DNA from: a virus
IMG/VR virus record: IMGVR_UViG_3300031952_000013
Location: 20,861-84,860 of that record
Direction: 5' to 3' (one strand)
DNA: 64,000 bases
In this document: one piece after another, positions 4,762 through 41,962 of the stretch
Layout of the letters: each line of letters begins with the position of its first letter
Numbering within the stretch: the first letter of the stretch is position 1
The notes under the pieces: generated by a model
The model's input: the letters and a program-made list of their open reading frames with translations, nothing else
The model's database searches: none
Told to the model about the DNA's origin: nothing
Position numbers and translations under genes: made by a program

Positions 4762-4770
4762 TCTTTTTAT

Positions 4771-4819: not shown

Positions 4820-4829
4820 TTCTTTTATC

Positions 4830-20717: not shown

Positions 20718-21721
20718 AAGTACAATTCTTGACTGCTAAAGAGTTGGTAGATAAGATGGGGTACAGCTTGAAGTCTGGAGGGAATGTTTATGGATATGAA
20801 GTGGCTTCTGGTATTGCCTTGAATAGTTTAAAGGGAGCCGGAGTAGAAATTGCCGAGGATGCGAGGTTGTGTTTGCAGTACACCCCCCCACATTGGTTTA
20901 CTCCTATAGAGGGTAAAATTAATGTGATTTTCTCAATGTGGGAGGCTGAGAATATTCCACCTGATTTACTTGAATCGTTTGTTAAGGCTGACGCTATTAT
21001 TGTGCCATCTAAGAATTCAAAGGAGGCTTTGAAGAGAGGCGGGATATTGAAGCCTATCTATATTTGCCATCAGGCCTGTGATACAGATTTTTACTACTTC
21101 AAAGAACACGAAACGGCTGGTTTGGGAGGGACTGTTAGGTTTTTATGGGTTGGTGCGCCGAATGTTCGTAAGGGGTACGACTTGGCAATTCAGGCCTTCT
21201 ACGAGGCGTTCCATAACACAGGGGCTAACGTAGAATTGTATGTTAAGTCTACTCTGGAGGGGAAAGAAGGGGAAATCACTCCCATGACTAGATTTAATGC
21301 TGTTGTTGATACAAGGAATTTGCCGAAAGAGCAGTTGAGGGAGCTTTACTGGTCGTCTCAGGCGTTTCTATATCCATCTAGAGGAGAAGGGGCAGGGCTG
21401 CCCCCTATGGAGGCGATGTCAACGGGGCTGCCGGTTATTGGGCCTAGATATGGTGGGATGAGAGACTACATGTTTTCTGACTATTCTTATCCTGTGAAGT
21501 GGAAAATGGTGGAGTGCGAATATGGTATTAAAACTAGATTATGCGAAGTGGATATAGATGATTTGATTACTGTTCTGTGGAAGGTGTATAATAATATTCC
21601 TCAGGCTCTTGCTAAGGGAGAGGGCGCATCAAAGTTTGTCAATTGGGTATTCTCCCCTCAGATGATGGGGAAATCACTGACTGGTGTTTTAGAGACAATT
21701 GAGGAGAAATATAATGAGTGA
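20714..21721 (+). CDS. glycosyltransferase family 4 (GT-B)
   Basis: RKGYD; YPSRGEGAGLPPMEAMSTGLPVI (EX7E motif). Confidence 0.9.
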   Translation: MKVQFLTAKELVDKMGYSLKSGGNVYGYEVASGIALNSLKGAGVEIAEDARLCLQYTPPHWFTPIEGKINVIFSMWEAENIPPDLLESFVKADAIIVPSKNSKEALKRGGILKPIYICHQACDTDFYYFKEHETAGLGGTVRFLWVGAPNVRKGYDLAIQAFYEAFHNTGANVELYVKSTLEGKEGEITPMTRFNAVVDTRNLPKEQLRELYWSSQAFLYPSRGEGAGLPPMEAMSTGLPVIGPRYGGMRDYMFSDYSYPVKWKMVECEYGIKTRLCEVDIDDLITVLWKVYNNIPQALAKGEGASKFVNWVFSPQMMGKSLTGVLETIEEKYNE

Positions 21722-22106
21722 TAAGTCAGGGGTTCCACCCTCTGAGGTTGGTCCGAAAGGACCGAGGATGGGGAAGTTAAATCTTGGGGAGATGGTTGAA
21801 GCGGTAGTTCTAGCTACGTACATTAAGGTGCTTTGTCAAAAGCGTAATCTGCAAATGCAAGGGCAGTTCTTTGAGGGGCTGTTGGCTGGTTATGACCATT
21901 GGTTTAGAACTCTTAAAATTCCTCAGGATTTGTTTGATGAGCTTCAGGAGAAAATAGATAAAGATTTGGTTATGAAGAGGGCAGAAGAGTATATGGATAA
22001 GGCGATGGGTCAACAGGGTAGAATAATTGTTCCTGGTGTTCAGGATGTTGCGGCGGCAAAAGCGGCTAAATCCATTTTTGATCGTCAGTTTAAGGTGGCT
22101 AAATGA
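21699..22106 (+). CDS. hypothetical protein
   Basis: ORF coupled in the operon. Confidence 0.6.
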   Translation: MRRNIMSDKSGVPPSEVGPKGPRMGKLNLGEMVEAVVLATYIKVLCQKRNLQMQGQFFEGLLAGYDHWFRTLKIPQDLFDELQEKIDKDLVMKRAEEYMDKAMGQQGRIIVPGVQDVAAAKAAKSIFDRQFKVAK

Positions 22107-22447
22107 GTATGATTGTTTATGTTTTACTGCTTACATTTGTTATGACGGGAAGTGTTCTGACAGGTGTGGCATCTTGGTATGGACCTGGGTTTCATGGTAG
22201 GTTAACAGCTAGTGGAGAAGTTTTTGATATGCACGCTATGACTGCTGCACACAGGAAACTCCCATTGGGGACGATGGTTAGTATCAGAAATATGTTGAAT
22301 GGGAAGACTGTGGTAGTGACAATCAACGACAGAGGACCCTATATTGATGGCAGGATGCTTGATGTTTCGTATGGGGTGGCTGTAAAGTTAGATATGGTGG
22401 ATAGGGGGTTTTGTCCTGTGCAGGTTAAGGTTATGAGGTTACAATGA
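22103..22447 (+). CDS. rlpA: RlpA-like lytic transglycosylase (DPBB domain)
   Basis: GVASWYG..FHGRLTASGE.FDM.AMTAAHRKLP.GT ... INDRGPY...R.LDVS; N-terminal signal/TM. Confidence 0.92.
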   Translation: MSMIVYVLLLTFVMTGSVLTGVASWYGPGFHGRLTASGEVFDMHAMTAAHRKLPLGTMVSIRNMLNGKTVVVTINDRGPYIDGRMLDVSYGVAVKLDMVDRGFCPVQVKVMRLQ

Positions 22448-24128: not shown

Positions 24129-24974
24129 ATGAAACTGGATTTAGCGAACGCGAAACCAGAGGGCAGGGCTGAATTTCCACGGCTCTCTTTGAAAAAAGAT
24201 GAGACGGCTAGAATTTGCATCCTCTCGACAAAGGATTGGGAAGTCTCCCTAAGGCATTTTGTCAACGGTGCTGGTTATGTCCATTGTCATGCTATGAAGG
24301 ACGCTAAGGATGAGATTGACCTTCTTCGGATTGAGGAGGAGGGTGGTAATCCTGACAAGTGCATGATGTGTAAAATGGCTCTTCAGCAGGATAATGGACC
24401 TGTGGGTCGTCCTTACAGACGGTTTGCTTTGAGGGTACTTCGCTACGGGACTGACCTTTATGGGAAAGTCACTCTTCCTTTAAAGTTTTGGATGGAAATT
24501 TGGATTATCAGTAACGAGAAGTACCGGCAGCTTAGACGGATTGTAGATGAATGGGGAAAGTTGGCTGAGCATGACCTTACTCTGACCTGCTCGGATGCTT
24601 CTTATCAAAAGATTTCTATTGATGTGAAAAAGGAAGCGGCCTGGATGAAAGATAAGCAGGGTGTGGTTGGTTATTGGAAAGCTGAACTTGGGAAGTACAA
24701 GTTGGATGAGTGTCTGGGTAACTCCTATGACGAAAAGACTCTGGAGAAGAGGCTTTCTCTAGTTGCTCGCAGGGGTCAAAAAACGACTGCCGTCGAGTTA
24801 GAGGAAGACTCAGTTTTCTCCTCTGATGAGGCTAAACCCAAGCCGATTGGTGATGTATTTGGGGCGGGTGGTTCGGGAACAGCCTCACCGGTAGATAACG
24901 GAGAGGGTACTAAGACAGGGTTTAAAGAAGAAGCTGAAACCGTTGATTTCCTAAAGGAATTGGATATTTCCTGA
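24129..24974 (+). CDS. single-stranded DNA-binding protein (gp32-like)
   Basis: RHFV..YVHC ... CMMC Zn site, acidic flexible C-tail, immediately upstream of recA. Confidence 0.65.
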   Translation: MKLDLANAKPEGRAEFPRLSLKKDETARICILSTKDWEVSLRHFVNGAGYVHCHAMKDAKDEIDLLRIEEEGGNPDKCMMCKMALQQDNGPVGRPYRRFALRVLRYGTDLYGKVTLPLKFWMEIWIISNEKYRQLRRIVDEWGKLAEHDLTLTCSDASYQKISIDVKKEAAWMKDKQGVVGYWKAELGKYKLDECLGNSYDEKTLEKRLSLVARRGQKTTAVELEEDSVFSSDEAKPKPIGDVFGAGGSGTASPVDNGEGTKTGFKEEAETVDFLKELDIS

Positions 24975-26029
24975 TGGAAGATTGGCATAAGAGTATCGAA
25001 CAGGAGTTTGGTAGTGATGTTTTTTTGTCTGGTTTTAGTGGCGATGTGGTTCCTACTGGAAGTTGTATTGTGGATGCTCTTACTGGTATTGGGGGTTTCC
25101 CTATTGGCGGAATTGTGGAAGTCTGTGGTACAGAGGGTAGCGGAAAGACAACGTTAGCCCTCACATCTATGGTATCGGCGTTGAGGTCAGGTAAGTCGGT
25201 GATGTGGTTAGATTTTGAGCGGAAACTCAGCAGTACCTATGCTAAGAAACTTGGAGTTAATTTCGATTTGGTTAGGGATTATGTGTTATCTCCTGAATCT
25301 ATGGAAGATGGTTGGATGATGATTAATCGGTTTTGTGAGGCTCCTCAGCACAGAGGGGGTATGATTTTTGTGGATAGTGTGGCTGCTATGCCCCCTATCT
25401 CTGACCTAGAGAAAGTGAAACTGATTATCGGTCAGGTGCGTGTCGCAAGTATGGCACAAGTTATGTCGGTAGCGTTTCGTCAGATGATTAATGTCCTCAA
25501 AAAATCCCAGGTAGGGATAGTGTTTTTGAACCAAGAACGCAGTCTGATAGACACTACGGGAAGAAGCATAGGACAGAAAACAACCCCAGGAGGAGCGGCT
25601 CTTAAATTTTACAGTTCGTTGCGGTTGAAAATGGAGATTAAAGGGGCCATAAAAGAGCCTCAAATTGACCCTATATCGGGGGTTGTAGCCGAAATTGTGA
25701 CGGGATTAAACATTCAGGTGACTGTGTTGAAGAATACGTTGGCTCCAAGTTATCGAAAAGCGTGGGTTGTTCTCCGTATGGATGAGGGTATCGACAACCT
25801 TACATCGGCGGTGAAAATCGCGGAGAATCTGGGTTGGATAAAGAAAAAGGGTTCTTATTATGTTCTGGCAGACCGATTTAGTGGCAGTGACACACTAGGT
25901 GGTCACAAAGAACATGGTTTTGAGCGTTTGAGGAAGTTTTTTCTGAACAACTCTGATGTGATGGGTATTCTTATGAAGGACGTGAACGATTATCTAACGT
26001 CCAAACCAATAAAATCAATGGAGGAGTAA
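24974..26029 (+). CDS. recA: RecA/UvsX recombinase
   Basis: GTEGSGKTT, VDSVAA, FLNQER, TPGGAALKFYSSLRL. Confidence 0.95.
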   Translation: MEDWHKSIEQEFGSDVFLSGFSGDVVPTGSCIVDALTGIGGFPIGGIVEVCGTEGSGKTTLALTSMVSALRSGKSVMWLDFERKLSSTYAKKLGVNFDLVRDYVLSPESMEDGWMMINRFCEAPQHRGGMIFVDSVAAMPPISDLEKVKLIIGQVRVASMAQVMSVAFRQMINVLKKSQVGIVFLNQERSLIDTTGRSIGQKTTPGGAALKFYSSLRLKMEIKGAIKEPQIDPISGVVAEIVTGLNIQVTVLKNTLAPSYRKAWVVLRMDEGIDNLTSAVKIAENLGWIKKKGSYYVLADRFSGSDTLGGHKEHGFERLRKFFLNNSDVMGILMKDVNDYLTSKPIKSMEE

Positions 26030-27185: not shown

Positions 27186-27917
27186 ATGCATGATAAAAAA
27201 GAATGGAATCCTGAGCATTTTGATGTCAATTATTATGAGAGGAGTGAGAAAACTCCTTATGGTGGTTTCCAGGTTCCGTATACATGGGAAAACTTTAAGA
27301 ATCATGCTTACGCCAAAATCGCCTTTATTAGGAAGTATTTTGGTGGATTTGACATAAAGACAATCTTGTTCGGAGGTTGTGCTAAGGGATTTGAAGTGAG
27401 GGCAGCTAAAGAACTAGGTTACGACGCTTATGGGATTGATATATCAGAGTATGCTCTGGTTCATGCAGACCCGTCGGTGCTGTCTCAATGCACTCTTGGG
27501 TCTATTACTGATTTATCTAAGTTTTATAAGGATGATTCGTTTGATTTATTTGCTTCATTTGATGCGTGGCATACGATTCATCCTGATGAAAGGGAACAGG
27601 CAGCTAAAGAGATAAGTCGAATCACCAAGAAAGGTATTCTAATACGGACGGGGTTTTGTTCTGGTAAACAAGTTGGATTTATTTCATACGATGGTGACGT
27701 TGAATATATAGACCCTGAATTTAACGGTACGTATGACGGTAATCCGTCTTATCAGGATTCGATTGGTCTGTTCTTCAGACGGTTTGAAGAATTGGGTAAG
27801 TTTGCAGGTTTCTTTTCCCCTGTAGTCTGGGATAGGGATTACTTCATTTGGTACAGTCTGTGTCGTTCTGGTAATGACATGTTACGCAAGAATTATGGGG
27901 CAGGTGGTGGAGTTTGA
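27186..27917 (+). CDS. class I SAM-dependent methyltransferase
   Basis: ILFGGCAKG, YGIDIS, GSITDL..DDSFDL motifs. Confidence 0.85.
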   Translation: MHDKKEWNPEHFDVNYYERSEKTPYGGFQVPYTWENFKNHAYAKIAFIRKYFGGFDIKTILFGGCAKGFEVRAAKELGYDAYGIDISEYALVHADPSVLSQCTLGSITDLSKFYKDDSFDLFASFDAWHTIHPDEREQAAKEISRITKKGILIRTGFCSGKQVGFISYDGDVEYIDPEFNGTYDGNPSYQDSIGLFFRRFEELGKFAGFFSPVVWDRDYFIWYSLCRSGNDMLRKNYGAGGGV

Positions 27918-28858
27918 TTAAGACCATTGTAGTTAAGGGTTATCAGAGCCTCTATGACATCTCTCTGGAGATGGGGAAGTTCACAGTAATTTATGGTGAG
28001 TCAGATGTCGGCAAAAGTAGTTTATACCGGGCGATCAGGGGTCTGCTGACGACTGAAAGCGGGGATGCATTCATTTCTAGGGGGGAGAAAGGTGCTTTTG
28101 TCTCTCTGACGCTAGATTCAGGGGAGAAGGTTACTTGGGTTAAGAGGCGGGGTCAGAGCAGTGAATATACTCTGGGTAATCAAATTTACAGGCGGTCCAA
28201 GCAAATTCCAGACGAGATTGCGAAGGTGTTGAGGATTGCACCGATTGTTGTGGATGGTGACAAATTTTATCCCAATCTCAGGGGTCAGTTTGATAGTCTA
28301 TTTCTGTTGTTTGATTCATCGTTGAAGAGGGCAAGGGTTCTGGGTTCTTTGATTTCCAATATTCTGTTAACTGGTATCCGTCAAGTTAACTTAGAGAGGA
28401 ATCGGAACGAAGCCGATATTAGGGCAGCAGGAGATTTGAAGCAATCTTTAGAGGATAGAGTGAGTCAGAACTGGGATGGTCTACTTAGAGAGACGGATAC
28501 TTTAAAACAGACTTTGGTTGTGGCTAGAAAGATTCTTGACCGGATTGAAGAGATTAGAGTTGTAGTAGAGGAAATGGAGACGCTCAAACCCTATGAGTCT
28601 TTGATTTATGCTCTTTTGAACGAGAAAGATTTAGTGAACTTGGTTGAATTACTTGACAGGTATAGCGAGATTGCTGAGGTAGTTGCGGAAGTTTCTGGTG
28701 AAAAGAGTTCACTTGAGAGGAATGAATTTTTGATGGGAAAGGTAGAAAAGGACAGGGATGGGGCTAAGATTCTGTTGGATGATATGAAAGAAAAACTGAC
28801 AATTACCTGTCCGAATTGTAAGCGCCCGATTTCGTTGGTGGAGATGGGAATTGACTGA
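27914..28858 (+). CDS. SbcC/Rad50-like ATPase, N-terminal half
   Basis: KGYQSL, Walker A GESDVGKS, Q-loop GQFD, coiled coil ending in Zn-hook CPNC; lacks signature and Walker B. Confidence 0.85.
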   Translation: MIKTIVVKGYQSLYDISLEMGKFTVIYGESDVGKSSLYRAIRGLLTTESGDAFISRGEKGAFVSLTLDSGEKVTWVKRRGQSSEYTLGNQIYRRSKQIPDEIAKVLRIAPIVVDGDKFYPNLRGQFDSLFLLFDSSLKRARVLGSLISNILLTGIRQVNLERNRNEADIRAAGDLKQSLEDRVSQNWDGLLRETDTLKQTLVVARKILDRIEEIRVVVEEMETLKPYESLIYALLNEKDLVNLVELLDRYSEIAEVVAEVSGEKSSLERNEFLMGKVEKDRDGAKILLDDMKEKLTITCPNCKRPISLVEMGID

Positions 28859-29792
28859 GATATTGTTCTGGTCGGACCCCCATAATTCTGATACTCCCCC
28901 CCGTATGCGTAAGGATTCTTATTGTGAGGATATTCTTGCGAAGCAGGAGAAGATTGCCGAGTTGTCTAAGGGATATGATTTAGTTATTTGTGGTGGGGAC
29001 GTTTTTCACCAGAAAAGGGCTGACAGGATATCGTATCGTTTGGTGAACAGGTTGTGTGAGATTTATCGAGAGATGGGTAATCTGATTATCGTTCCTGGTA
29101 ATCATGATGTTGAGACAAGGTGGGATTTCAAAGTGCGCCCTTTGGGAATTCTGTCTCATCTTCCAAATGTAAGGTTGAGCCACGCGGAGTCTATTGAATT
29201 TGATGATTTTGTTATGCTGACGTATGGGGGGGCAGAATTCTTCCCTGAGGTAGAGTTTTTGAGTTGGTTAGAGGGTGAGTCTAGGTTGATTACTGTTAGA
29301 GATAAGAGACACAGGGTAGGGGTGTTTCATCAGGGTATTGGAAATACGGCATGGAATTTGCCTTTTCCTATGATTGATGCAAGGAAAGTTGAAAACTGGG
29401 TGGATTTTGGACTTATCGGTCATATTCACAGCCATGTAGGGTATGTTAGCGCAGGAAAGTTGTACTGTGCGGGGGCAATCAGCCGTGGTTCACTGACCGG
29501 TGATGAGGTGGATAGGCCGGTTTGTTATATGCATGTGGAGATTGGGAAAGACCAAATTTCCTGTGGTTTGCAGGAATTACCTATTAAAATGGGGGAGGAA
29601 GTTTTCAAGATTTCCGAGCGGATGGCTGAAAAAAAGACAGAGGCGGGGGTCAATCAATTTCTGTCTTACATAGAATCGTTTGACCTGCCCAAATCTATGA
29701 GTGCAGAGGAGATTATTTCCTATATCGAGTCCAATACAGAGATTGACAAGAAGGTTGCTCATAAGGCTGTGAGTGTCCTGAGGGGTTTGTGA
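28851..29792 (+). CDS. SbcD/Mre11-like metallophosphoesterase nuclease
   Basis: SDPH, GGDVFH, PGNHD, FHQ, GHIH. Confidence 0.9.
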   Translation: MTEILFWSDPHNSDTPPRMRKDSYCEDILAKQEKIAELSKGYDLVICGGDVFHQKRADRISYRLVNRLCEIYREMGNLIIVPGNHDVETRWDFKVRPLGILSHLPNVRLSHAESIEFDDFVMLTYGGAEFFPEVEFLSWLEGESRLITVRDKRHRVGVFHQGIGNTAWNLPFPMIDARKVENWVDFGLIGHIHSHVGYVSAGKLYCAGAISRGSLTGDEVDRPVCYMHVEIGKDQISCGLQELPIKMGEEVFKISERMAEKKTEAGVNQFLSYIESFDLPKSMSAEEIISYIESNTEIDKKVAHKAVSVLRGL

Positions 29793-30604
29793 TGAAGTTA
29801 TTTGAAACGACGCTTTCTTATACGTTTCTCTCAACCTACCAGAAGTGCCATCGTCGGGCTTGGTTGCAGTACGTTAAGAAGGTTGTTCCGCCTGAGAAGG
29901 TCAATCAGAGGCCGTTTATCGTGGGAATTTGCGCAGACTGGTTGTTTAAGAAGTGGGTTGCTGGTGGCTACCACTCCGATTGGATGGAGCAAGAAGCCAG
30001 GGGAATCTTTGAATGGTTTTCTACAAAAAGAGTGATTCGTTACCTAGATGGTTCAGATAAAGAGAAACTCATCCTCAAGTTGACTATGGCGGTGAAAGAC
30101 CTACAACAGGCTGCTTTAGACGAGAAGTTTCCTGATAGGGTGCTTAATCTTCAGAAAGAACTTAGGGTAGACTATAATCAATTTGTTATGTCAGGTAAGT
30201 TAGACATCTGGTTTCCTGAGGAGAAAGCTATCTGCGATTTGAAGATAACATCGTCTATGAAGTACCTGGATAGTTTTCAACTGAGGTATTTTGCGTGGCT
30301 GATGGAGCGTAAACACACTATTTTTGTTGAGAAACTCACGTTTCTCTCTCCTATGATGAGGCCGTATCTCAAGGAGGTTTCTTGGTTGCCTAATGATAAG
30401 ACAGAGTTTGACCTTCTGTTGTTTGACGTTCTGGGGCGGATTGCGTCGAATGATTGGTCTATAACAACTAAGGATTGCTGGAGTTGCCCTGTGGCATCCT
30501 TCTGCGAAGAGTTTACTGTGGAGGCTGAGAGAACGAAATCAGCTTCTGGTGGATTTAAGATAAAAATAGGAGTAGAAGATGGAGGTATCGAAGAAGAGTT
30601 ATAA
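29789..30604 (+). CDS. PD-(D/E)xK nuclease (RecB/Cas4-like)
   Basis: LSYT...YQKC, GKLD...ICDLK, QLRYF, C-terminal CWSCP...C. Confidence 0.85.
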   Translation: MMKLFETTLSYTFLSTYQKCHRRAWLQYVKKVVPPEKVNQRPFIVGICADWLFKKWVAGGYHSDWMEQEARGIFEWFSTKRVIRYLDGSDKEKLILKLTMAVKDLQQAALDEKFPDRVLNLQKELRVDYNQFVMSGKLDIWFPEEKAICDLKITSSMKYLDSFQLRYFAWLMERKHTIFVEKLTFLSPMMRPYLKEVSWLPNDKTEFDLLLFDVLGRIASNDWSITTKDCWSCPVASFCEEFTVEAERTKSASGGFKIKIGVEDGGIEEEL

Positions 30605-30872: not shown

Positions 30873-31964
30873 ATGAAGTTTATTATTCGCAGACCGTTTT
30901 TGTTGGCGTTATTGGAGAAAGCCTGGACTGTGACTATCGGGGGTACTCTTTCTACAACTAAGGGTTTTTACTTTGTCCAGAAAGACGATACCCTGACGGT
31001 TGCTCGTACTGACAGTATCTTGAGTGCGGTGGCTTCTACTAATGTGGTTAATTGGGTGAATAAAGAAGCTCCCAACGAATTCCTTGTGGATGCCGAAAAG
31101 TTCCTCCGGCTGATTAGAGGTCTTGCTTGCGATGAGGTTTCTCTTTCAGTTGAGGATAATGAAATTGCGATTTCTGGAGACAACTTCAATGCAGAGTGGC
31201 TCCTGTTCGATTTAAAAGACTTTCCGAAATTGCCTGTGTATCACAGGGAGATGAGCCTAGAAGTGCCTACAATCGAGTTTGTGGGGGCAGTAGACAGGAT
31301 TCGCTACGCTGCGTCGATTGAATCCCTGACTTCTGCTTATAAACAGATTTACTTTGAGAACGGGGCATGTTGGGCGACTGATGGTTATAACTACCAGGCT
31401 GTTGAAACTAAAATTACACTCCCAAATCAAGTTGCTCTGCCTCTTATCGGATTGGATGTTGTAAAGTTTTTGCGTCTCTCAGGTGTCAGTTCGTTCTTTT
31501 TGTCGTGGGATGATGACCACTACTATTTTATGATAGGGAATGACGCTTTTGTATGTCGGCGATCTCCGGTTCAACCTCCTAATCCTTTATTGGATTTCTA
31601 CGGTAAGTTGAGTATGGAGTATCATAAACTTCCCTATTTCACTTTTGAAGTCAGATTGCTTCGCCGGATTGTTGAGAGAGTGGCTATTACCGGTAGTTTT
31701 TCTAACAAACGAATCTGGTTTCATGTGACTCCTACAACTTTGACTATCAATGGGGTCGATGAGGACGGGAATTCCAGTTCAGAGGTGCTTATTATCACTT
31801 TAAATGGAGATAAGACAGATAGAACGCTTGGGATTCACTACGAAATGCTACTGTCTGCGTTAGCTTCTGTGAGGAAGGAATCAGCCAATTTTAGATTCAA
31901 CAAGAATCATTTTCTTATTACGTCGGAGGATAGTACAGCTATTCTCCCCTTGTTGAAAAAATGA
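30873..31964 (+). CDS. dnaN: DNA polymerase III beta sliding clamp
   Basis: 363 aa three-domain size; ARTD, DFPKLP, ATDGY, C-terminal AILPL. Confidence 0.88.
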   Translation: MKFIIRRPFLLALLEKAWTVTIGGTLSTTKGFYFVQKDDTLTVARTDSILSAVASTNVVNWVNKEAPNEFLVDAEKFLRLIRGLACDEVSLSVEDNEIAISGDNFNAEWLLFDLKDFPKLPVYHREMSLEVPTIEFVGAVDRIRYAASIESLTSAYKQIYFENGACWATDGYNYQAVETKITLPNQVALPLIGLDVVKFLRLSGVSSFFLSWDDDHYYFMIGNDAFVCRRSPVQPPNPLLDFYGKLSMEYHKLPYFTFEVRLLRRIVERVAITGSFSNKRIWFHVTPTTLTINGVDEDGNSSSEVLIITLNGDKTDRTLGIHYEMLLSALASVRKESANFRFNKNHFLITSEDSTAILPLLKK

Positions 31965-32605
31965 GTGAATTAGGCGACTTGGAAAAGAGGCTGGAGTTTA
32001 TTTCTAGCCTTATTACTAGAAATAAAATTGAGAAGGACGTTAATGAGAAAACGATGGTTCGTCTTGATCTGACTATGGAGGATAAGAGAGAGTCTAACGA
32101 GACTCTTCTCAAGGTAGCTGAGTTGTTTAAGTCTTTGGGTGGGTCACATGAGAAAGACCTGTTGGATAAACTTAGCAAATTTGTTAACTATGGGTTGGTG
32201 GTGGTGTTTGGTGGTCATGGGATTTTCGTTCCTGCCATGTCTCTTGACGGTAAGGATATCAGAGTAGATTTCTTTATCGAAGTGGAAGGCAGCCTTTGTG
32301 GTATTGCAGACGCTAAGGGAGGGGGAGTCGCAGAGGTTGTGAGCATTCTTCTTCAGCTTTTCTTCATGGTGGTAATGAGAGGTCAGGGGGTTGGTGATGT
32401 GCTGATAATGGATACGGCTCTTGTGCATCTTTCTGACCAGTATCACGAGAGGATGTCGGCTCTGTTGAAGGAGCTTTGCGATAAGTTAAACATTCAAATT
32501 ATCCTGATGATTCACTCGATGGCTTTCGGTAAATACGCTGACAAATTGTATCTGTTTAGACAAGAGGAAGGAAAGACGATAGTGACGGAGGAAATGAGTG
32601 GATAA
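31961..32605 (+). CDS. SbcC/Rad50-like ATPase, C-terminal half
   Basis: Coiled coil, then signature-like AKGGG, Walker B VLIMD and H-loop QIILMIHS. Confidence 0.8.
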   Translation: MSELGDLEKRLEFISSLITRNKIEKDVNEKTMVRLDLTMEDKRESNETLLKVAELFKSLGGSHEKDLLDKLSKFVNYGLVVVFGGHGIFVPAMSLDGKDIRVDFFIEVEGSLCGIADAKGGGVAEVVSILLQLFFMVVMRGQGVGDVLIMDTALVHLSDQYHERMSALLKELCDKLNIQIILMIHSMAFGKYADKLYLFRQEEGKTIVTEEMSG

Positions 32606-32751
32606 TAAAAGGTTTGGTTTTACACCTTGTTTTGTGAAAAGTTTTAAAGGATTTGATACGGCTGGACAACCTGTATTTGAGATGTCCTGTATCTGTCCCG
32701 AGTGTTTGGGGAGAACAACTCCCATCCACCCTTGGGTTGAGGAGAAGAAAG

Positions 32752-33264
32752 ATGAGCGAAGTGAGCCTGACGGGAAACGCTAAACTTATTAGGCTTTCTA
32801 CTAAACCGTTTAAAATTTTGGCTTTAGATTTAGGGACTCATTGTGGATGGGCAGTATCAACTCCTTGTTCTGTGGTTGAAAGTGGGGTGCAGATGTTTGA
32901 TTTGCGGAGGGGAGAAAGTCCTGGGATGCGGTTTATCAGATTTAATAAATGGTTATCTGAGATGTTGATTAATGTGTTTCCAGATATGGTTGTTTATGAG
33001 ACGATGTTTGCTTGTCGTGGTCCTGCTCTTGAAGTTTTATTGGGTATGTATACTAGGATACAGGAACAATGTGCTATGAAGAGTATTCCTTACGCTGGTA
33101 TGAACGCGATGACACTGAAGAAGCGGGCTGCGGGAAGTGGTAAAGCATCTAAAGACATGATGATGAAGGCGGCTTCCGAATTTATAGGCCATCTAATTTT
33201 AGATGATAATGAAGCAGACGCAATTATGCTTTTAAAAATTGCTATGGAAGACTATGCTACATGA
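32752..33264 (+). CDS. RuvC-like Holliday junction resolvase
   Basis: ILALDLG..GWA, VVYE, LKK.A.GSGKASK, DNEADAI. Confidence 0.88.
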   Translation: MSEVSLTGNAKLIRLSTKPFKILALDLGTHCGWAVSTPCSVVESGVQMFDLRRGESPGMRFIRFNKWLSEMLINVFPDMVVYETMFACRGPALEVLLGMYTRIQEQCAMKSIPYAGMNAMTLKKRAAGSGKASKDMMMKAASEFIGHLILDDNEADAIMLLKIAMEDYAT

Positions 33265-33829
33265 AGAATGGTATTCAATTTATCAGAAGGCGGTGTGGGG
33301 CTGTGAAGCCTGTTCCGCTAGGCATGAGTGTACCCGACCGGTTCCTGGTGAGGGAGATTTAAATTCGTCTTTTTTGGTTGTTGGTAGGAACCCAGGTAAG
33401 AACGAAGATATTCTAGGGCAGCCCTTTGTTGGACCTGCTGGTGAGGTGCTGGATAAGTTTTTGGAATTGTGTGGCGTGTCACGGAGTAAAGGTTGTTTCA
33501 TCACAAATATGTGCTTATGTCATACCAGAGAGGATAGGTTTTTATCTAAGGAAGAGGTGAAGACCTGTGTTAAGGGATTTTTAATACCGACTTTGGTTCA
33601 GTTGAAGCCGAAGGTCGTTATGGTATGTGGGACGCAGCCAAATTATTTTATAAACGGTATCAAGAAACCGTCTCATCATCATGGTGAACTGTTTGAGCAT
33701 AGGTCAGGATTCCACACTATCTGTAGTCTTCATCCGGCAGCAGTTTGTTACAATCCCGACTTGTGGGTTAGATTTGAGGTTCTGGCTCCGGTTGTCAAGA
33801 GGTTACTAGATGATAATACGGTCTCCTGA
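33254..33829 (+). CDS. family 4-like uracil-DNA glycosylase ([4Fe-4S])
   Basis: CEAC, VPGEG, VGRNPG..ED..G.PFVGPAG, ITN..LC, LHPAA. Confidence 0.88.
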   Translation: MLHEEWYSIYQKAVWGCEACSARHECTRPVPGEGDLNSSFLVVGRNPGKNEDILGQPFVGPAGEVLDKFLELCGVSRSKGCFITNMCLCHTREDRFLSKEEVKTCVKGFLIPTLVQLKPKVVMVCGTQPNYFINGIKKPSHHHGELFEHRSGFHTICSLHPAAVCYNPDLWVRFEVLAPVVKRLLDDNTVS

Positions 33830-36347
33830 GGAAGTTGAAGATTTTTTAACCCGACACAAGTTTGATTTTGGCGATTTGCCGCACGTATATTTAGGCCAAG
33901 AAGACGGGAGTTTTCATAAGGATTGGGGTTTAGCCAAATATAAGATTCTTTTCTCGATGCTATGGCGGTATCAGGATAGTCGTGGGAATCAAACTGTTCC
34001 ACTTCTCTATCAGATTATAAATGAGTGGCGACCAGGAGAAGTTCTGATGGAGAGGGCCAATGTACCTGAGACAGAGGAACACTATAAACTTTTCCGTAAA
34101 TATCAGATTCCTCTGTTCGGTGTGGAATCAAAGCACAGTGCAGGGGGCTACGATATGATAATGACCTCCCTTAGTTATGTTCCGGTCTGGTGGAATTTCC
34201 CCCTAATGTTGAAACTTAGTGGGATTCCAGTTCTTCAGAAAGATCGTTCTGATGAAGGGCAGTATCCTTTAATCATGGTTGGTGGTTCGTCTGTCTATGG
34301 TAACTTTGGGTTGGTGTTTCCTGTAGTTGACATAATCTATTTTGGTGACGCTGAAGATGAAGAAGATGGAGGGGTTTTGCATTTATTGGATTACATTATG
34401 GAGTTGAGGGGCCATGGGTTACAAAATTCGGAGGTTCTAGATGCTATTCAACCTAACTTCCCTTATATCATGTGCCCCAGGTTCTACACTCCTCACTATG
34501 AGAAAGAAAAGTTTACAGGATGGACATCGGCTCCGTCCAAGTTTCCCAAGAAGTTTGTCGTTAGGAAATGCAAAAATCTGGATGCGGTTCCTAAGTACAC
34601 GAAGCCAATTCTCTCCTATACTGATAATACGATGGGTCTGGGTGAAGTGGAGATTTCCAGGGGTTGTCGTGGGATGTGTGCCTTTTGTGGTATCGGATGG
34701 AAGTACCGTCCATATCGGGAACGGTCTGTGGAAGTTATGGTTGAAGCTCTGACTACGAATAAGCGAAACTCTGGGGCGGTTTCGTTATGTCCTATCGCAA
34801 CGGAATTTGCGTACTACTCACACAAACGCAAGTTAATTAACGAACTTGCCAAGCACAGCCGGTATGTTGACCCTCTTTCCATGAGGATAGATGCTTTTGC
34901 AAGCGACGAAGAATTTGATATTTTCCTGAGGAAATTGTGTATGAATCAAGTGGCTCTGGGAGTGGAAGGAGTTTCTCAAAGACTTAGGAATAGAATGATG
35001 AAGGGAATTTCTGAGGAGGAGATTCTGAAGGCTTGTAAGATTGCGATTGAGGCTGGTTTTGACAGGGCCAAGTTTTTTATGATTGCAAATACGGACGAGA
35101 CTTGGGAAGATTTTGAGGAGTTCTTTTCTCTCTTAAAGAAGGTTGTGGATATGAAGAACAGAGCTAGGTCTCGATTAAAGATTAGGGCTTCGTGGACTCC
35201 GCTTTTTGTGGAGGCTTGCACCCCGCTACAATGGAAGAGTCCTACGATTCTACAAGACAATATTGATTGGAAACAGGTATACAACAGGTTGAAAGAACTC
35301 GGTATTGAGATGAAGTACGGGGTGAAACGCAATTATAAATTTATGCGGGTTTCTCAGGCTATGCATATTGGAGATACTCGGTTTGCTGAAGCAGTTGCTC
35401 TGGCAGCAGAGGAATCTGATAGGCCATTCTATTCGGGGTTTGATGATAAGTGCATCCCTAGACTTGAAAAATATATGGAGCAGACTGGTTATTCTTGGGA
35501 TTATATGCTCAGAGAGAAGACCGAAGATGAGGAGTTTATATGGGATGTTGTTGACAGGGGGGTCAAGAAAGAGACTTTATTGAAGTTGTGGAAGAAGATT
35601 AAATCAGGGGAGATGGATATGAAGAAAGTCAAGATTGTTCCTACAATGGATAATTGTGAACTGACAAAGACTCTCTATAACGAACAGGAAGCATTCTTTT
35701 GGGCTGTAGTGAAGTACAGGGTTTCTAAAGGATTGGATACGGTTCCCAATGCTTACTGGACGGCACACATAAGCAGGGCTGGTTTGAGGAGCGGGGTCCC
35801 CCTGGCAGTGAATAAGATTCACTTCTTTAGTAATCACGATAATGGAAACTGGTATGGAGGATTTGATTATATCGGTATTGGTTTAAGAAGCACACCATCC
35901 CCTGATAGTTGGTCTAAATTTTGTTCTGAGTTACAGCCGTTGGAGTATCAGAATGTATTGTGGTTACTAAATATGAAACCTACGTGGAGCGATCTGGTTA
36001 GTTCCTACCGGGTTGAGACTGACATTTCTCCTGCGGAGTGGGCAAAGTACAGAATCAAATTTGATGAAGCTGATAAGGTTACTGTGCGGAATAAAGAAAC
36101 AAGATATTTTTCTGGTGCGTGGAGGCAGTTGGTTGATTTGAAAGAAATCAAGTATATTGATGTTCAGGTTTCTGCCGATGTTGCTCCTACGATTATTCTG
36201 AATATCTATATGAGCCATGAGGTAGGGATTAGGTTTGCCCTAGTTGGTCTCCTTCCTGGGGTTTCATCTCGTCGGATAAAGAAGTTTCTGGTTGAGAAAA
36301 CGGGTTTACACAGGGTAAAAGATTGGGCGGTGCAGGAGAGTTTCTGA
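33810..36347 (+). CDS. TIGR03960-like radical SAM protein fused to a DUF2344-like domain
   Basis: EISRGCRGMCAFC (CxxxCxxC); N-terminal PLFGVES..LSGIP..GG..GDAE; GVEGVSQRLR; C-terminal ISRAGLRSGVPLA resembles TIGR03936/DUF2344. Confidence 0.85.
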   Translation: MIIRSPEEVEDFLTRHKFDFGDLPHVYLGQEDGSFHKDWGLAKYKILFSMLWRYQDSRGNQTVPLLYQIINEWRPGEVLMERANVPETEEHYKLFRKYQIPLFGVESKHSAGGYDMIMTSLSYVPVWWNFPLMLKLSGIPVLQKDRSDEGQYPLIMVGGSSVYGNFGLVFPVVDIIYFGDAEDEEDGGVLHLLDYIMELRGHGLQNSEVLDAIQPNFPYIMCPRFYTPHYEKEKFTGWTSAPSKFPKKFVVRKCKNLDAVPKYTKPILSYTDNTMGLGEVEISRGCRGMCAFCGIGWKYRPYRERSVEVMVEALTTNKRNSGAVSLCPIATEFAYYSHKRKLINELAKHSRYVDPLSMRIDAFASDEEFDIFLRKLCMNQVALGVEGVSQRLRNRMMKGISEEEILKACKIAIEAGFDRAKFFMIANTDETWEDFEEFFSLLKKVVDMKNRARSRLKIRASWTPLFVEACTPLQWKSPTILQDNIDWKQVYNRLKELGIEMKYGVKRNYKFMRVSQAMHIGDTRFAEAVALAAEESDRPFYSGFDDKCIPRLEKYMEQTGYSWDYMLREKTEDEEFIWDVVDRGVKKETLLKLWKKIKSGEMDMKKVKIVPTMDNCELTKTLYNEQEAFFWAVVKYRVSKGLDTVPNAYWTAHISRAGLRSGVPLAVNKIHFFSNHDNGNWYGGFDYIGIGLRSTPSPDSWSKFCSELQPLEYQNVLWLLNMKPTWSDLVSSYRVETDISPAEWAKYRIKFDEADKVTVRNKETRYFSGAWRQLVDLKEIKYIDVQVSADVAPTIILNIYMSHEVGIRFALVGLLPGVSSRRIKKFLVEKTGLHRVKDWAVQESF

Positions 36348-36372: not shown

Positions 36373-37506
36373 TTGAGTCAGTGGAATATTTCTTGGCGGC
36401 CTCGTGGATTTGGCGGTGTAGTTGGGCAAGAGCATGTGGTTCTATTCTTTCAAAAAGTTCTGGCTAACTGGTTTGATAAAGGAGAAACTCTGCCTATTGG
36501 AGTTTTGTTTGGGGGGCCGAGTGGAGTCGGAAAAACGACAATTGCTAGGATAATAGGGGCATCTTTAAACTGTGATTGTCGAGTGGGGGTGGAACCGTGT
36601 GGGATGTGTAAATCGTGTAAGGATATTATAACAGGTACGGGAGGGATTTTAGAAATAGACGCAGCCTTTTTTGGTTTAGTTGATAATATTCGACAATTAA
36701 GGCAGCGATTAAGTTCATATGCTTTTAGTTCTTACCAGGTTGTTTTAATTGATGAGTGCCATGTTATGTCCCGCGAGGCATTTAATGTCTTACTCAAGTT
36801 GCTTGAGGAGCCATTGGACAGGGTATTCTTTATTCTGGTGACTACAGCGACAGATAAGGTTATAGAGACTGTAAGAAGTAGGTTGATTGAATTCCGCTTC
36901 AAGTCGCTAAAATGGGATGTGGTATTTCCTTACATTTCTAAACTCCTCCAGGCTGAAGGGATTTTGTGTGAGTCGGAGGACATTGTAAAAAAACTTTACA
37001 TGATAGCTGACCACAATTTTAGGGAGTTGCTGATGATGTTGGAGCAAGCTGCGGTTGTGGGTAATGGTAATATCTCGTCGGATGTTCTTCGGGGGCTTTA
37101 TGGGAATCTGATGGTCTTTGATTCTATCATTGATTCTCTGGTGGAAGGGGATTTTGTTGGAGCGATTTCGTATTACGATGAGTATAGGTCAATGCAGCCG
37201 GATTTTTCTATCTTCTTGTCGGGATTTTTAGATGTACTGACGGATAGGTTGAAGGTTGGTTTGAGGTCTGGTGATTCACGTTCTCCAATATATTTAGCAA
37301 TAATTAAGAGTGTGTATGAACTTTTAGGGATGCGTTTGACGACTAAAGGGGGTGTACAGGCCAAGTTGCTTTTTGCGAATGTGGTCCAACTGGTTAAAGG
37401 AGCAGAGGCTGGTCGTACTGGAACAGGGAAGTCATTAAATGAAGAAGATGTATTTAACTTACTGACTGGTAAAGGGAAGTCGGTAGGTGCTGAGTCGAAA
37501 CACTAA
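36373..37506 (+). CDS. dnaX: DNA polymerase III gamma/tau clamp-loader ATPase
   Basis: WRP..F..VVGQEH, GPSGVGKTT, Zn module PCGMCKSC, IDECH, FNVLLKLLEEP, TVRSR. Confidence 0.93.
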   Translation: MSQWNISWRPRGFGGVVGQEHVVLFFQKVLANWFDKGETLPIGVLFGGPSGVGKTTIARIIGASLNCDCRVGVEPCGMCKSCKDIITGTGGILEIDAAFFGLVDNIRQLRQRLSSYAFSSYQVVLIDECHVMSREAFNVLLKLLEEPLDRVFFILVTTATDKVIETVRSRLIEFRFKSLKWDVVFPYISKLLQAEGILCESEDIVKKLYMIADHNFRELLMMLEQAAVVGNGNISSDVLRGLYGNLMVFDSIIDSLVEGDFVGAISYYDEYRSMQPDFSIFLSGFLDVLTDRLKVGLRSGDSRSPIYLAIIKSVYELLGMRLTTKGGVQAKLLFANVVQLVKGAEAGRTGTGKSLNEEDVFNLLTGKGKSVGAESKH

Positions 37507-37903: not shown

Positions 37904-38932
37904 GTGAAAATTCGGGTAGATGTTTGTATCAATGGAGATAAGGTTGATATTGATTCGTCGTTTTTGGAGCGCAGGGAGTCGTGGCTGTCCGGTACAGGTG
38001 TGTATCTGGAATTTATACTGAAGGGTAGTTACTTGGAGCCGTTTGATTTTGATGTTGTGGTTGGTGGGGATGGGGCGACGGTGAGCCGCCATTCTTGGAA
38101 TCGGTTTTTCTTGAATCTCAAGTCCTCTGCTGAGGTTGTGTTTGTGGTGAAGGAATCTGGTAAGGTAGTGGCTGAAAAGAAACTAAATTTTAATGTTGTT
38201 CCTTTGTCTGTGCCTTTGCTCTTTACTGTGCCTTATCTGACCTATTATTCTGTCTCGGATATTCGATACTTTGCCAATCGGATTTCGGAGAATATGGTTG
38301 GTGGAACGAGATTTATTCTATTCTCGTCACGGACTCTTTCGTATCTTTCTAAGGTGGACATGAATCCAGAGGATGGTTTTTGGAAATTGCATGAGCTTGT
38401 TCTCTCAATTCTGACGGAAAGAGGATTGTCGGTTTATGTTTCTCCTTTTGACGATAAAACTCTCTATACGACTCATATTCTAAAACAACTGAGGCCGATG
38501 CTTTTGTCTTATGCAGAGCGGAATTTGAAGTTCAACTTGGTATGGGATTTGAGCAGTGGGATTTGGAAAAGCGGAGTTTCAGGGATAGTAGACAGTTTTT
38601 GTAATAAGTTTGGTAGGGAAATTAAGATCGCCACCTGTCCTGAGTTTGCGTCTAAATTGGGAGGGGAGGGGTTTGCTCAGATTGTGGTTCGTGGGCTAAT
38701 GACTGATGAGGTTGAGCCGAATACTATGGGAACGAAGATTTTTAGAGTCCATATTGTGACATCGGATTTCTATAAACTGCGGTCCTTTGTGGCTAGCCTG
38801 GTAAAGAATGGTTGGGGAGTGGAATGTGTGATGGAGGATGTTCCATCTTATATACGGAAGGTGCAATTTTCTCTTGGCAACGCTTTGTATAAGGGGTTTT
38901 TAGATGCAGGTGGTGGAAAAGCAGCTGATTGA
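37904..38932 (+). CDS. hypothetical protein
   Basis: 342 aa ORF overlapping the TerL start. Confidence 0.65.
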   Translation: MKIRVDVCINGDKVDIDSSFLERRESWLSGTGVYLEFILKGSYLEPFDFDVVVGGDGATVSRHSWNRFFLNLKSSAEVVFVVKESGKVVAEKKLNFNVVPLSVPLLFTVPYLTYYSVSDIRYFANRISENMVGGTRFILFSSRTLSYLSKVDMNPEDGFWKLHELVLSILTERGLSVYVSPFDDKTLYTTHILKQLRPMLLSYAERNLKFNLVWDLSSGIWKSGVSGIVDSFCNKFGREIKIATCPEFASKLGGEGFAQIVVRGLMTDEVEPNTMGTKIFRVHIVTSDFYKLRSFVASLVKNGWGVECVMEDVPSYIRKVQFSLGNALYKGFLDAGGGKAAD

Positions 38933-40574
38933 GTTAGCTCATCCTTTTGATCGAGCCTTGTCTCGGATGAGGAATGAGGTTGATACAGCTAGTTCTGTCT
39001 TTGAATTTGAGCCGGTTCCTCTGCAAACATTCGTTACAGATAAGGGATATTTGAGTCTTCCTCCTTTATCCTCTCGTCAGGCTGAGGCGGTGACTTACGC
39101 TACTCAGATTTATCGGGATGAGGAAATGAGGTTGTTGAAATGGAGAAAGCACCGTCAGGTTGATGAGTGTGTTTTTCTCTGGGGTAAAGGGTCTGGGAAG
39201 GATTTTGTAGCTCGCATTATTCTTATGAGGATTGCTTATCTTCTTCTAGCGTTGAAAAATCCTCAGGCCTACTTCTACCATCCTGATATGCCGTGTGGGG
39301 TTGAGCGGATTGATATGCTAAATACGGCGACTACGAAAGAGCAAGCGGCTAATGTATTCTTTGGACCGTTGAAGAAGTACATCTCGACATCTCCATTCTT
39401 CAGGAATCGGGCGCAGGCATTCAGGTCGGAGATTAAGTTTGATAAGGCTATTCATCTTATTAGTGGGCATTCTGAAGCGGAGGCCCAAGAAGGTCTTAAT
39501 TTGATTGCTGTTGTTCTGGATGAGATTGCGGCATTCAAGACAGACGAAGAAGTGGCTGATATTAAGAGGATGAAACTCAGGAAGAATGTGCCGCAGTCAG
39601 CGGCTTCTTTGTATGATTTTGCGAAAAGTACAGTTATCACTAGGTTTCCACAGGCAGGGAAAGTCATCTTGTTGTCCTTTCCTAGGTTCAATGGTGATTT
39701 CATTACGACTAAATATGAGGAAGGTAAAGACAAGCATCATGTCTACGTAAGTAAAGGTGCGACGTTTGAAATTAATCCTATACGGAAGAAGTCGGATTTT
39801 GTTAGAGAGTTGGAAGAAAACCCAGAGAGGTATAAGGCTAGAATTCTTTGCGACCCAGGTATTGCTGAGGATGCATTCTTTAAGAATATGGCAGCAGTGA
39901 AGAGGAGCTTTAAGACGGAATTTGAATGCCCTGTGGATGAAACGACTGGTAGATTGAAGTCTTGGTTTGTGTGTAAAGATAATTTCTACCGTTTTGGTCA
40001 TGTGGATTTAGCTAAGAACCGAGATAGGGCTGCTGTGGCTTTTTGTCACGCATTCCAGGTGGAGAAGAGACAGGTAGAAGTTAGGGAGGATAAAGAGGGC
40101 CAAGCAGAGACTAAAATTATTATTGTTGATTTGCCCCATGTTCGTCTTGATTGTCTGATGTACTTCAAAGCTCATCCTGGGGGAGAGGTTAATTTTGAGG
40201 TGGTTAGGGATAGTATCTTAGACTTTATTGATGCTCGTGGGTTCAAAGTTGAGTTAATTACTTTTGATGGTTATCAATCGGTCCAGATGAAACAGTCATT
40301 GGAGGCAAGGGGTATTGTGGTTGATGACCAATCAGTTGATAGGACTAGGGAGGCTTATGAGACATGGCAGGATGCTATGTACGAGGGGAGATTTGTTTCC
40401 TATTATATCTCCGATTTGGTGGACGACGAAATTCCTTTTTTGATTGATTTTAAAGGACGTAAAATTGAGCACAGAAAGGGCGGAGGAAAGGATGGTAGTG
40501 ATGCAGTTGCTGGTGCTGTCAATAACTGTGTGAAATCTGAGATGTGGGGATCGGTTGAATTTTGGACTGCATGA
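38904..40574 (+). CDS. terminase large subunit
   Basis: Walker A GKGSGKD, Walker B VVLDE, nuclease HVDLA...D, FDGYQS, KDGSDAVAG. Confidence 0.92.
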   Translation: MQVVEKQLIELAHPFDRALSRMRNEVDTASSVFEFEPVPLQTFVTDKGYLSLPPLSSRQAEAVTYATQIYRDEEMRLLKWRKHRQVDECVFLWGKGSGKDFVARIILMRIAYLLLALKNPQAYFYHPDMPCGVERIDMLNTATTKEQAANVFFGPLKKYISTSPFFRNRAQAFRSEIKFDKAIHLISGHSEAEAQEGLNLIAVVLDEIAAFKTDEEVADIKRMKLRKNVPQSAASLYDFAKSTVITRFPQAGKVILLSFPRFNGDFITTKYEEGKDKHHVYVSKGATFEINPIRKKSDFVRELEENPERYKARILCDPGIAEDAFFKNMAAVKRSFKTEFECPVDETTGRLKSWFVCKDNFYRFGHVDLAKNRDRAAVAFCHAFQVEKRQVEVREDKEGQAETKIIIVDLPHVRLDCLMYFKAHPGGEVNFEVVRDSILDFIDARGFKVELITFDGYQSVQMKQSLEARGIVVDDQSVDRTREAYETWQDAMYEGRFVSYYISDLVDDEIPFLIDFKGRKIEHRKGGGKDGSDAVAGAVNNCVKSEMWGSVEFWTA

Positions 40575-40588: not shown

Positions 40589-41962
40589 ATGAACGCAGAA
40601 ACGACTGTAAAAATGCCTGAGGATGTAAAACAAGAACCACCTAAGAACACTCTGGCTGAGTTTGGTACTGTCGGTATGGTTACCGATATGATGACCTATC
40701 TCCAAGATGAGGTCTTGGACAGGAGAGACATTACTTTAGACCAACTCATTCAGATGACCAAGTGTGACGGTCAGGCCAGGGGTATCTTGAATGCAATTAA
40801 ATATCCTATTAAGATGGCCAGACCCACTGTTAAGGAAGCCGAAGGCGGGACTAAAGAGGCTGAATTTATTAAGAAAAATCTTTTAGGTCCACCCGCTTCT
40901 GGTGGTATGGATACAGCTATCCAGACGATTATTAGTAGAATGGCTTTGGCTATTCGAGACGGATATAAGATTTTTGAGAAGGTATGGGAGCAGAGGGAGG
41001 GCATGATATGGTTGAAGAGACTGGCTTATCGAAGCACTCTCTGTACGGATTTTATCTATGATGAAAGAGGGGTTATTAAAGGGGCTAGACAACAGACCTC
41101 CTTCCAGGGGAAGAGGTATGATGTGGAATGGGATAAAGAGAAAATTGCCTACTTTATTTATAACCCAGAGGAGAACCCATATAAGGGAGAGAGTGACTTT
41201 TATCCGGTATTTTATCATTATGATAAAAAACACAAGTTGTATGCGATTGCTCACTTGGCTTATCAGTTGAATGCCTGTCCCATAAGGATTGGTAAGCACC
41301 CACAGAACTTGGGGAAGGAAGAACTGGAAAAGTTTAGAGACGCTTTAAAGTCTCTAGGGACTACGGTTGTTATGACATTTCCTAACACTTGCGAGATTGA
41401 TTCTTTTGAAAGTGGTAGGAAATTGACCGAGTTTCTGGGGTTGATTCAGCATCACGATGGTATGATGTCTAGGGTTTTCTTGACTCAGTTTATGAATCTA
41501 GGTCAGGAGGGTAGAGGAGGCAGTTATGCTTTATCTTCAGACCAGAGCGACTTATTCCTTATGTCCCTCATGTCGTTACTGTTTGATGTTGCTGATGTGT
41601 TCAATACTCAGGTCATTCCTCAGTTGATTGACTGGAATTTTGGTACGGATAAGTACCCGAAATTGACCTTTACTCCATTCTCTGATACAATTAGAACAGC
41701 TATCATGGACACCTTCAAGACCATTCTGGCTGCGAGATTCCCGCAGGTTAGTGCCGAGATGGTTCTGGAGTTGGAAAAGAAGGTTGCTGAGGAACTGGGG
41801 TTGGAGATTGACTATGTAGCAGTACAGGCTAGGATAGAGAAAGAACGCGCTGCGCTACAGAATATTGAGACAAAAGCCACACCAAACAGTAAAAAAGGAG
41901 GTCCGGGTACGACTAAAGGGGCGAATGAGGAAGAATCTGACGGTGATTTGGCATCTCAATAG
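40589..41962 (+). CDS. portal protein (DUF935 / Mu gp29-like)
   Basis: Follows TerL; NPYKGES, PIRIGK, GSYAL, IPQLIDWNFG. Confidence 0.88.
   Translation: MNAETTVKMPEDVKQEPPKNTLAEFGTVGMVTDMMTYLQDEVLDRRDITLDQLIQMTKCDGQARGILNAIKYPIKMARPTVKEAEGGTKEAEFIKKNLLGPPASGGMDTAIQTIISRMALAIRDGYKIFEKVWEQREGMIWLKRLAYRSTLCTDFIYDERGVIKGARQQTSFQGKRYDVEWDKEKIAYFIYNPEENPYKGESDFYPVFYHYDKKHKLYAIAHLAYQLNACPIRIGKHPQNLGKEELEKFRDALKSLGTTVVMTFPNTCEIDSFESGRKLTEFLGLIQHHDGMMSRVFLTQFMNLGQEGRGGSYALSSDQSDLFLMSLMSLLFDVADVFNTQVIPQLIDWNFGTDKYPKLTFTPFSDTIRTAIMDTFKTILAARFPQVSAEMVLELEKKVAEELGLEIDYVAVQARIEKERAALQNIETKATPNSKKGGPGTTKGANEEESDGDLASQ

Follow-up and report, generated by a model that had tools for sequence, protein, structure and literature searches.

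A viral genome of 84,860 bp (IMG/VR record IMGVR_UViG_3300031952_000013; complete according to CheckV) carries two overlapping genes within its DNA-metabolism block. One encodes a relative of the family 4 uracil-DNA glycosylases (UDG); the other encodes an 845-residue radical S-adenosylmethionine (SAM) protein. An earlier note on this DNA, made from the letters alone, took the two for a coupled module. Analysis of the right-hand 64 kb of the record (64,000 nucleotides, positions 20,861 to 84,860; "the window") and of related loci favors another reading, with a probability of about 0.6: these are two independent genes of the replication block, neighbors by chance. The UDG would be a polymerase-type accessory protein that has lost the catalytic Glu of its family, and the radical SAM protein would be a viral branch of the TIGR03960/DUF2344 enzymes.

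The features at issue, in window coordinates, are:

33254-33829, plus strand: UDG, 191 amino acids (Pfam UDG, TIGR00758)
33383-33397, plus strand: UDG motif A, GRNPG for GE(A/G)PG (alignment to structure 1ui0, whose GEGPG aligns there)
33810-36347, plus strand: radical SAM fusion protein P0002, 845 amino acids (Pfam, TIGR03960)
34002-34451, plus strand: N-terminal Rossmann-like domain, Radical_SAM_N2, residues 65-214 (PF19864, 8.2e-21)
34647-35135, plus strand: radical SAM core, residues 280-442 (PF04055, 3.6e-22)
34665-34688, plus strand: CxxxCxxC of the radical SAM core (C286-x3-C290-x2-C293)
35643-36344, plus strand: divergent DUF2344-like domain of TruA-type fold, residues 612-845, 234 residues (hhalign, AlphaFold2, fold matches)

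The UDG gene starts with the ATG at 33254 (an in-frame TTG lies upstream, at 33239), and its stop codon (33827-33829) falls 20 nucleotides into the radical SAM frame. The protein matches Pfam UDG (PF03167, 2.2e-21) and, at a score under the cut-off, the family 4 model TIGR00758 (1.9e-31; 109.1 bits against 125.3). Its nearest relative in the PDB is the T. thermophilus UDGA structure 1ui0 (2.4e-21). With family 4 UDG and UdgX it has in common the fold family and three sets of residues: the four Fe-S cluster Cys (C17, C20, C89, and C105); the pocket Asn (N85, in ITN); and motif B (H160-P161-A162). None of these varies among the 14 lineage sequences, and the cluster Cys and motif-B His align with 1ui0, at the sequence level only.

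Motif A sets the protein apart. As the earlier note had pointed out, it reads GRNPG in place of the GEAPG or GEGPG of family 4; the alignment to 1ui0 bears this out, and GEQPG, the other form seen in family 4 UDG and UdgX, likewise has the Glu that the window UDG lacks. GRNPG is unchanged in 14 of 14 lineage UDGs and in all 11 covering rows of a separate alignment. Motifs of the GxNPG type (GINPG, GMNPG) typify families 2 and 3, MUG and SMUG1, and the third-position Asn of GRNPG resembles them. In family 4 the motif-A Glu (E52) is conserved and activates water, and E52N cuts kcat/Km about 75-fold in an H109S background, according to PMC10359453. As aligned, the window UDG is altered at this catalytic position: the water-activating Glu is replaced by Arg, followed by Asn. 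Glycosylase activity may nevertheless be retained by another route.

Where else do such proteins occur? A profile of the lineage UDGs, run against 1.84 billion cluster representatives, recovered 37,969 relatives. G[RQ][NA]PG is present in 38 of the best 150 (30 GRNPG, 6 GQNPG, and 2 GRAPG); a profile favors its own kind, so these counts establish the existence of a G[RQ]NPG clade but do not measure its abundance. When viral contigs were scanned for the clade, 97 relatives came up; 80 loci were retained, and neighbors were sought within 6 kb. A PolA homologue lies within that distance in 53 of the 80 loci; 51 of these have it immediately downstream, in the same orientation. A TIGR03960-like radical SAM gene is found in only 6, four of which belong to the lineage of the window phage.

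This PolA association has a precedent. PMC10201439 describes phage PolA proteins with a fused family 4 UDG domain. Likewise, bioRxiv 10.1101/2025.03.26.645540 presents an active PolA-UDG fusion that scans the template ahead of the polymerase, and names E53, P55, and H178 for the active fused UDG domain of phiLo. In SPO1-like, SP15-like/phiLo, and N4-like phages, as in the G[RQ]NPG clade, a family 4-type UDG is tied to a family A replicase. The window UDG differs from these fusions in having a gene of its own, 12.5 kb from the gene for PolA, which itself has no UDG domain. Its motif A also is unlike that of the active fused domains. The window UDG looks like a stand-alone relative of the PolA-UDG arrangement. 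Supplements of the PolA-UDG papers aside, no paper on a GRNPG-type variant was found in the literature.

One member of the clade has an unusual architecture. The 526-residue protein P0137 contains an insertion of about 330 residues whose first residue, immediately behind GRNPG, is a Cys; the UDG homology picks up again near residue 347-380. The insertion is intein-like in appearance; phmmer of P0137 against the PDB gave no intein match.

The second line of evidence comes from the radical SAM gene and its neighbors. A search anchored on this gene returned 16 loci; two (L001 and L007) are the same in sequence, and 13 distinct loci include upstream DNA. A UDG gene lies upstream in 10 of the 13 (across a gap of 377 nucleotides in L015) and is missing beside the radical SAM gene in three: L008 and L012, with no UDG within 8 kb upstream, and L013, with only 1.4 kb of upstream DNA. 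In L008 (7528-7989) and L012 (7529-7999), a homologue of orf203, the gene that precedes the UDG in the window, stands directly upstream of the radical SAM gene in the UDG's stead. These homologues match RuvC weakly (E 0.002 and 0.007).

The radical SAM gene keeps its other neighbors. In all 11 loci that include downstream DNA, the clamp-loader gene comes next, and the clamp gene lies upstream in 6 of 6 with enough DNA. Anchoring on the large terminase (TerL) gave a concordant picture: all 6 close relatives whose upstream DNA reaches far enough have the radical SAM gene. That scan added one lineage locus (L196) and turned up no close relative lacking the radical SAM gene; its remaining matches, 40% identical in TerL, came from unrelated phages that have none of the genes discussed here, and were set aside. 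A clamp-loader-anchored scan of viral contigs recovered no lineage contigs beyond those already in the set. From these locus counts, the radical SAM gene is a fixed gene of the lineage, with the UDG as a variable insert at that position.

The gene overlap, which the earlier note had already placed inside a DNA-metabolism operon, measures 20 nucleotides and says nothing specific about the pair, because overlaps are typical of this block: between 24099 and 41962, 10 of the 17 successive junctions overlap, by 1-29 nucleotides.

Could the two proteins nonetheless belong to one Fe-S system of two genes, whose task would be to make, read, or repair an unusual base of the phage DNA? The radical SAM protein might, for example, modify a uracil-derived base that the Glu-less UDG then recognizes or spares. 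The genes do overlap in the window and adjoin in most lineage loci, and the invariant GRNPG lacks the general-base Glu, with the pocket residues retained. Moreover, two more distant viral records hold a GRNPG UDG about 5 kb from a TIGR03960-like radical SAM gene. The order in G001 is SbcC-UDG-SbcD-nuclease-...-clamp-...-radical SAM (1027 amino acids), with a T4-endoV-type pyrimidine-dimer glycosylase three genes further on; in G002 it is Pol III alpha ... UDG-SbcD ... RusA ... radical SAM (650 amino acids). The SbcCD and clamp genes of G001 have homologues in the window, so G001 is not an independent case.

Across relatives, however, the two genes are largely unlinked. The UDG clade is mainly associated with PolA, and 74 of its 80 viral loci have no radical SAM gene within 6 kb; the UDG is missing beside the radical SAM gene in 3 of 13 lineage loci; and among 80 loci of cellular radical SAM homologues, only one has a UDG homologue nearby, on the opposite strand. 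No further base-modification genes (thymidylate-synthase-like, kinase, or other) appear among the open reading frames scanned, and gene overlap is ordinary in this operon. The coupled base-modification module of the earlier note is therefore not supported, and a two-gene system seems improbable. (In G001, a provirus record also labeled L184, the genes a few positions past the radical SAM gene, at 3770-4857 on the minus strand, include one for a LAGLIDADG-domain protein besides that for the pyrimidine-dimer glycosylase.)

What, then, is the radical SAM protein? Its ATG, at 33810, is preceded by a Shine-Dalgarno-like AAGAGG 7 nucleotides upstream. Residues 24-602 match TIGR03960 (1.1e-65; hidden Markov model positions 10-584 of 605) at 222.3 bits, below the curated cut-off of 462.3. 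C286, C290, and C293 of the core are invariant in 22 of 22 aligned sequences. The domain order as assigned (Radical_SAM_N2, CxxxCxxC core, and DUF2344-like domain) is that of the cellular TIGR03960-TIGR03936/PF10105 fusion; in cells the two parts also occur as a pair of separate proteins. The best reading is that the protein is a viral branch of the TIGR03960/DUF2344 kind of enzyme.

This branch is well separated. The phage clade comprises 34 database proteins that are 45-82% identical from end to end and are encoded on contigs of up to 89 kb. Past it comes a gap, with P0037 at 31% identity, followed by the TIGR03960 proteins of cells, which align over just the N-terminal 68%, at about 27% identity. 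The phage protein differs from these cellular proteins not only in identity and in its score below the cut-off, but also in having a C-terminus unseen by Pfam and in lacking a Cys-rich stretch. That stretch, CX4-5CX2CG(V/I/L/A), lies between the core and DUF2344 in 11 of 11 cellular fusions and in 0 of 10 aligned phage-clade sequences; it is a feature seen in these alignments rather than a published criterion, and the comparison covers 10 of 22 clade sequences. Three other residues, C327, C409, and C470, show little or no variation within the phage clade. The cellular-fusion consensus has no Cys in the seemingly matching stretches, as judged by reading rather than by residue-level alignment.

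The full-length AlphaFold2 model (predicted local distance difference test, pLDDT, 86.3; predicted template modeling score, pTM, 0.88) has MgmA (7.6e-10), OxsB, TsrM, CysS, TokK, and MiaB/MtaB as its nearest solved structures in Foldseek. As modeled, the fold is a Rossmann-like domain plus a barrel; the structure matches confirm this general plan and name no reaction. The class-B (cobalamin-dependent) radical SAM enzymes and MiaB/MtaB/RimO also have a Rossmann-like N-terminal domain followed by a radical SAM barrel. However, the template modeling (TM) score against class-B enzymes and MiaB, normalized to the query, is only about 0.3. The B12-binding domain PF02310 gave no match at E<=0.01, no UPF0004-type N-terminal cluster is in evidence, and the C-terminal domain is TruA-like, rather than the TRAM of MiaB-type methylthiotransferases. 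TIGR03960 bears the title "B12-binding radical SAM protein," a name that by itself says nothing about cobalamin binding. The literature yielded no paper that gives a reaction for TIGR03960/DUF2344, and none on the viral form, on a phage radical SAM protein encoded between clamp and clamp loader, or on a radical SAM gene in an operon with RNase E, rplU, and obg.

Pfam sees nothing in the C-terminus: no model, DUF2344 included, matches even at E<=10, and clade member P0016 bears a precomputed PF10105 match. In a profile-profile comparison (hhalign), the C-termini of the phage proteins aligned with the DUF2344 portion of 11 cellular fusions at a probability of 89.8% (E 1.8e-6, 204 columns). The AlphaFold2 model of residues 612-845 (pLDDT 85.4, pTM 0.82) has TruA as its top match in both structure searches. 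Foldseek ranked 8q70 first (E 2e-6; TM 0.50; root-mean-square deviation, rmsd, 7.2). VIA-align ranked 1vs3 first (Z 9.9, rmsd 4.3, 190 residues aligned), with 8q70 at Z 9.8; TruA, Pus1, and PUS10 fill its top ranks (Z 9.9 to 8.6, rmsd 3.9-6.7, 190-200 residues), and the next unrelated structure scores 7.3. With TruA, Pus1, and Pus3 the C-terminal 234 residues thus have a fold in common (Z 9.9 to 8.2, 190-200 aligned), although identity is 7-10% and no relation is detectable at the level of sequence. The four nearest structure clusters in the ESM Atlas, one a viral radical SAM protein and three DUF2344, are weak matches (TM 0.39-0.47).

Together, the profile match and the TruA/Pus1 fold matches support a DUF2344-like, TruA-like C-terminus. 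This is what had been predicted at the outset, as had the TIGR03960-like N-terminus with its CxxxCxxC, and both predictions have held, the former at the level of profile and fold. No Asp is invariant in the C-terminal domain, and D686 is at least 90% conserved. At one loop position (alignment position 64), where 9 of 11 sequences have an acidic residue, the window protein has Asn. Kinship to TIGR03960/DUF2344 and a TruA-type fold make a nucleic-acid target reasonable.

Which nucleic acid is a further question, and the cellular and phage settings answer it differently. The cellular fused homologues were examined at 80 loci from many phyla, 68 of which have at least 1.8 kb of downstream DNA. In 43 of those 68, the next gene downstream, in the same orientation, encodes RNase E/G; L21, Prp, L27, and Obg lie farther downstream, and some loci have PBP2 and RodA upstream. 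The phage gene, in contrast, sits with clamp and clamp loader.

If the cellular setting is the guide, the phage protein, as its cellular relatives probably do, might modify rRNA, tRNA, or a ribosome- or RNase-associated protein; the outcome would be a remodeling of host translation or RNA turnover, and the gene would then sit in the replication block for reasons of expression timing only. The C-terminal fold, which is that of RNA pseudouridine synthases, is consistent with this idea, as is the presence of the tRNA enzymes MiaB and MtaB among the nearest structures of the N-terminal and core parts. Yet the sole phage tRNA gene is about 33 kb away, no RNA-processing genes were found near the phage radical SAM gene in the open reading frames scanned, the Cys-rich stretch of the cellular forms is lost, and identity to cellular members is low. 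An RNA-directed role of this kind is a tentative proposal.

If the phage setting is the guide, the protein could be a replisome-associated enzyme that works independently of the UDG to modify or repair phage DNA at the fork. Spore photoproduct lyase, a radical SAM enzyme that acts on DNA, offers an analogy. The fixed position between clamp and clamp loader favors such a role, and the radical SAM genes of G001 and G002 also lie within replication, recombination, or repair blocks. Against this, neither of those two genes is directly followed by a clamp-loader homologue; the cellular homologues adjoin RNase E/G and ribosomal genes; and no solved TruA-fold relative among the VIA-align matches acts on DNA. 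The C-terminal tail is ambivalent. It varies across the clade, and about half of the members end in a [VIL]-x-x-x-F-like peptide, a motif that would suit replisome association but is not kept throughout. (The predicted complex of the clamp with the C-terminal domain scored 0.00 in both runs, without controls, and counts neither way.) A replisome enzyme is possible, on about the same footing as the RNA-directed role.

Several observations weigh against reading the pair as independent genes, one of them a TIGR03960/DUF2344 enzyme. L008, L012, and L013 are partial contigs, so a UDG may lie farther away in these loci. Adjacency is retained in 10 of 13 lineage loci, which, together with G001 and G002, leaves a small chance of a functional tie between the two genes. 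The DUF2344 assignment comes from a profile match below 95% and a moderate fold match (TM about 0.5). Without the Cys-rich stretch, the phage clade may differ in chemistry from the cellular enzyme. Finally, the cellular RNase E/G setting points to RNA or ribosome biology, whereas the phage setting points to DNA replication.

Two independent genes nevertheless remain the preferred reading, and a mechanism can be sketched for each. The UDG would work with the polymerase on template DNA, acting either as a binder or as a uracil-type glycosylase whose chemistry or specificity has changed. The [4Fe-4S]/SAM core of the radical SAM protein would generate a 5'-deoxyadenosyl radical and take hydrogen from a substrate, which the TruA-fold domain would hold. 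That substrate most likely is a nucleic-acid strand; DNA at the fork and RNA appear about equally likely as targets, and protein appears less likely. A joint scheme, in which the radical SAM enzyme modifies or repairs a pyrimidine of phage DNA at the fork and the Glu-less UDG serves as reader or proofreader, is a long shot.

Both genes sit in a DNA-metabolism block with PolA, RecA, SbcCD-like proteins, a PD-(D/E)XK nuclease, the clamp, and the clamp loader. The window has a G+C content of about 0.44 and a strongly positive GC skew, and its plus strand carries nearly all of the long open reading frames. Other features are:

297-368: tRNA-His (GTG), the sole tRNA gene of the whole 85-kb genome
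18528-20717, plus strand: PolA, family A DNA polymerase, no fused UDG domain (PF00476, 2.7e-89; PF01612)
24974-26029: RecA
27186-27917: SAM methyltransferase
27914-29792: SbcC-like and SbcD-like proteins
29789-30604: PD-(D/E)XK nuclease
30873-31964, plus strand: beta-type sliding clamp (PF00712, 7.5e-8)
31961-32605: gene without an assigned function
32653-33264, plus strand: orf203, no Pfam match in the window copy
36373-37506, plus strand: DnaX/delta'-type clamp-loader subunit (PF13177, 5.4e-27)
38904-40574: probable large terminase (no Pfam match; label from position and 55-74% identity to the relatives' gene)
40589-41962: Mu-type portal

At 9554-10123 lies the gene for a small sigma-70-like protein, in which regions 2 and 4 are present. 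A GT4 glycosyltransferase gene (20714-22447) directly follows PolA and also matches the Pfam "GT4 in conflict systems" model; two genes past it lies a gene for a protein with a DPBB lytic-transglycosylase domain. The GT4 gene was considered as part of a DNA-glycosylation pathway and set aside, since cell-wall work seems likelier given the nearby lytic transglycosylase.

Megablast of the UDG-radical SAM region against a phage collection gave no match, and tblastn gave partial matches at 25-27% only (Microcystis phage MaAM05 and fecal contigs). PHROGs (E<=0.001) has no family for either protein, though the UDG clade is common in viral contigs.

These results bear on both protein families. The G[RQ]NPG UDGs, common beside phage PolA and lacking the catalytic Glu of family 4, look like a variant of polymerase-coupled uracil surveillance. 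The probable independence of the UDG and the radical SAM protein spares experiments designed on a false pairing. Should the unlikely alternative prove true after all, a pyrimidine-acting radical SAM enzyme with a UDG reader would be a new system of DNA base modification or repair, and would reveal the chemistry of the cellular TIGR03960/DUF2344 pair. In either case, TIGR03960/DUF2344 is a large radical SAM family that spans many bacterial phyla, and a compact, fused viral member, fixed in a replication block, is a tractable protein from which to learn the family's function.

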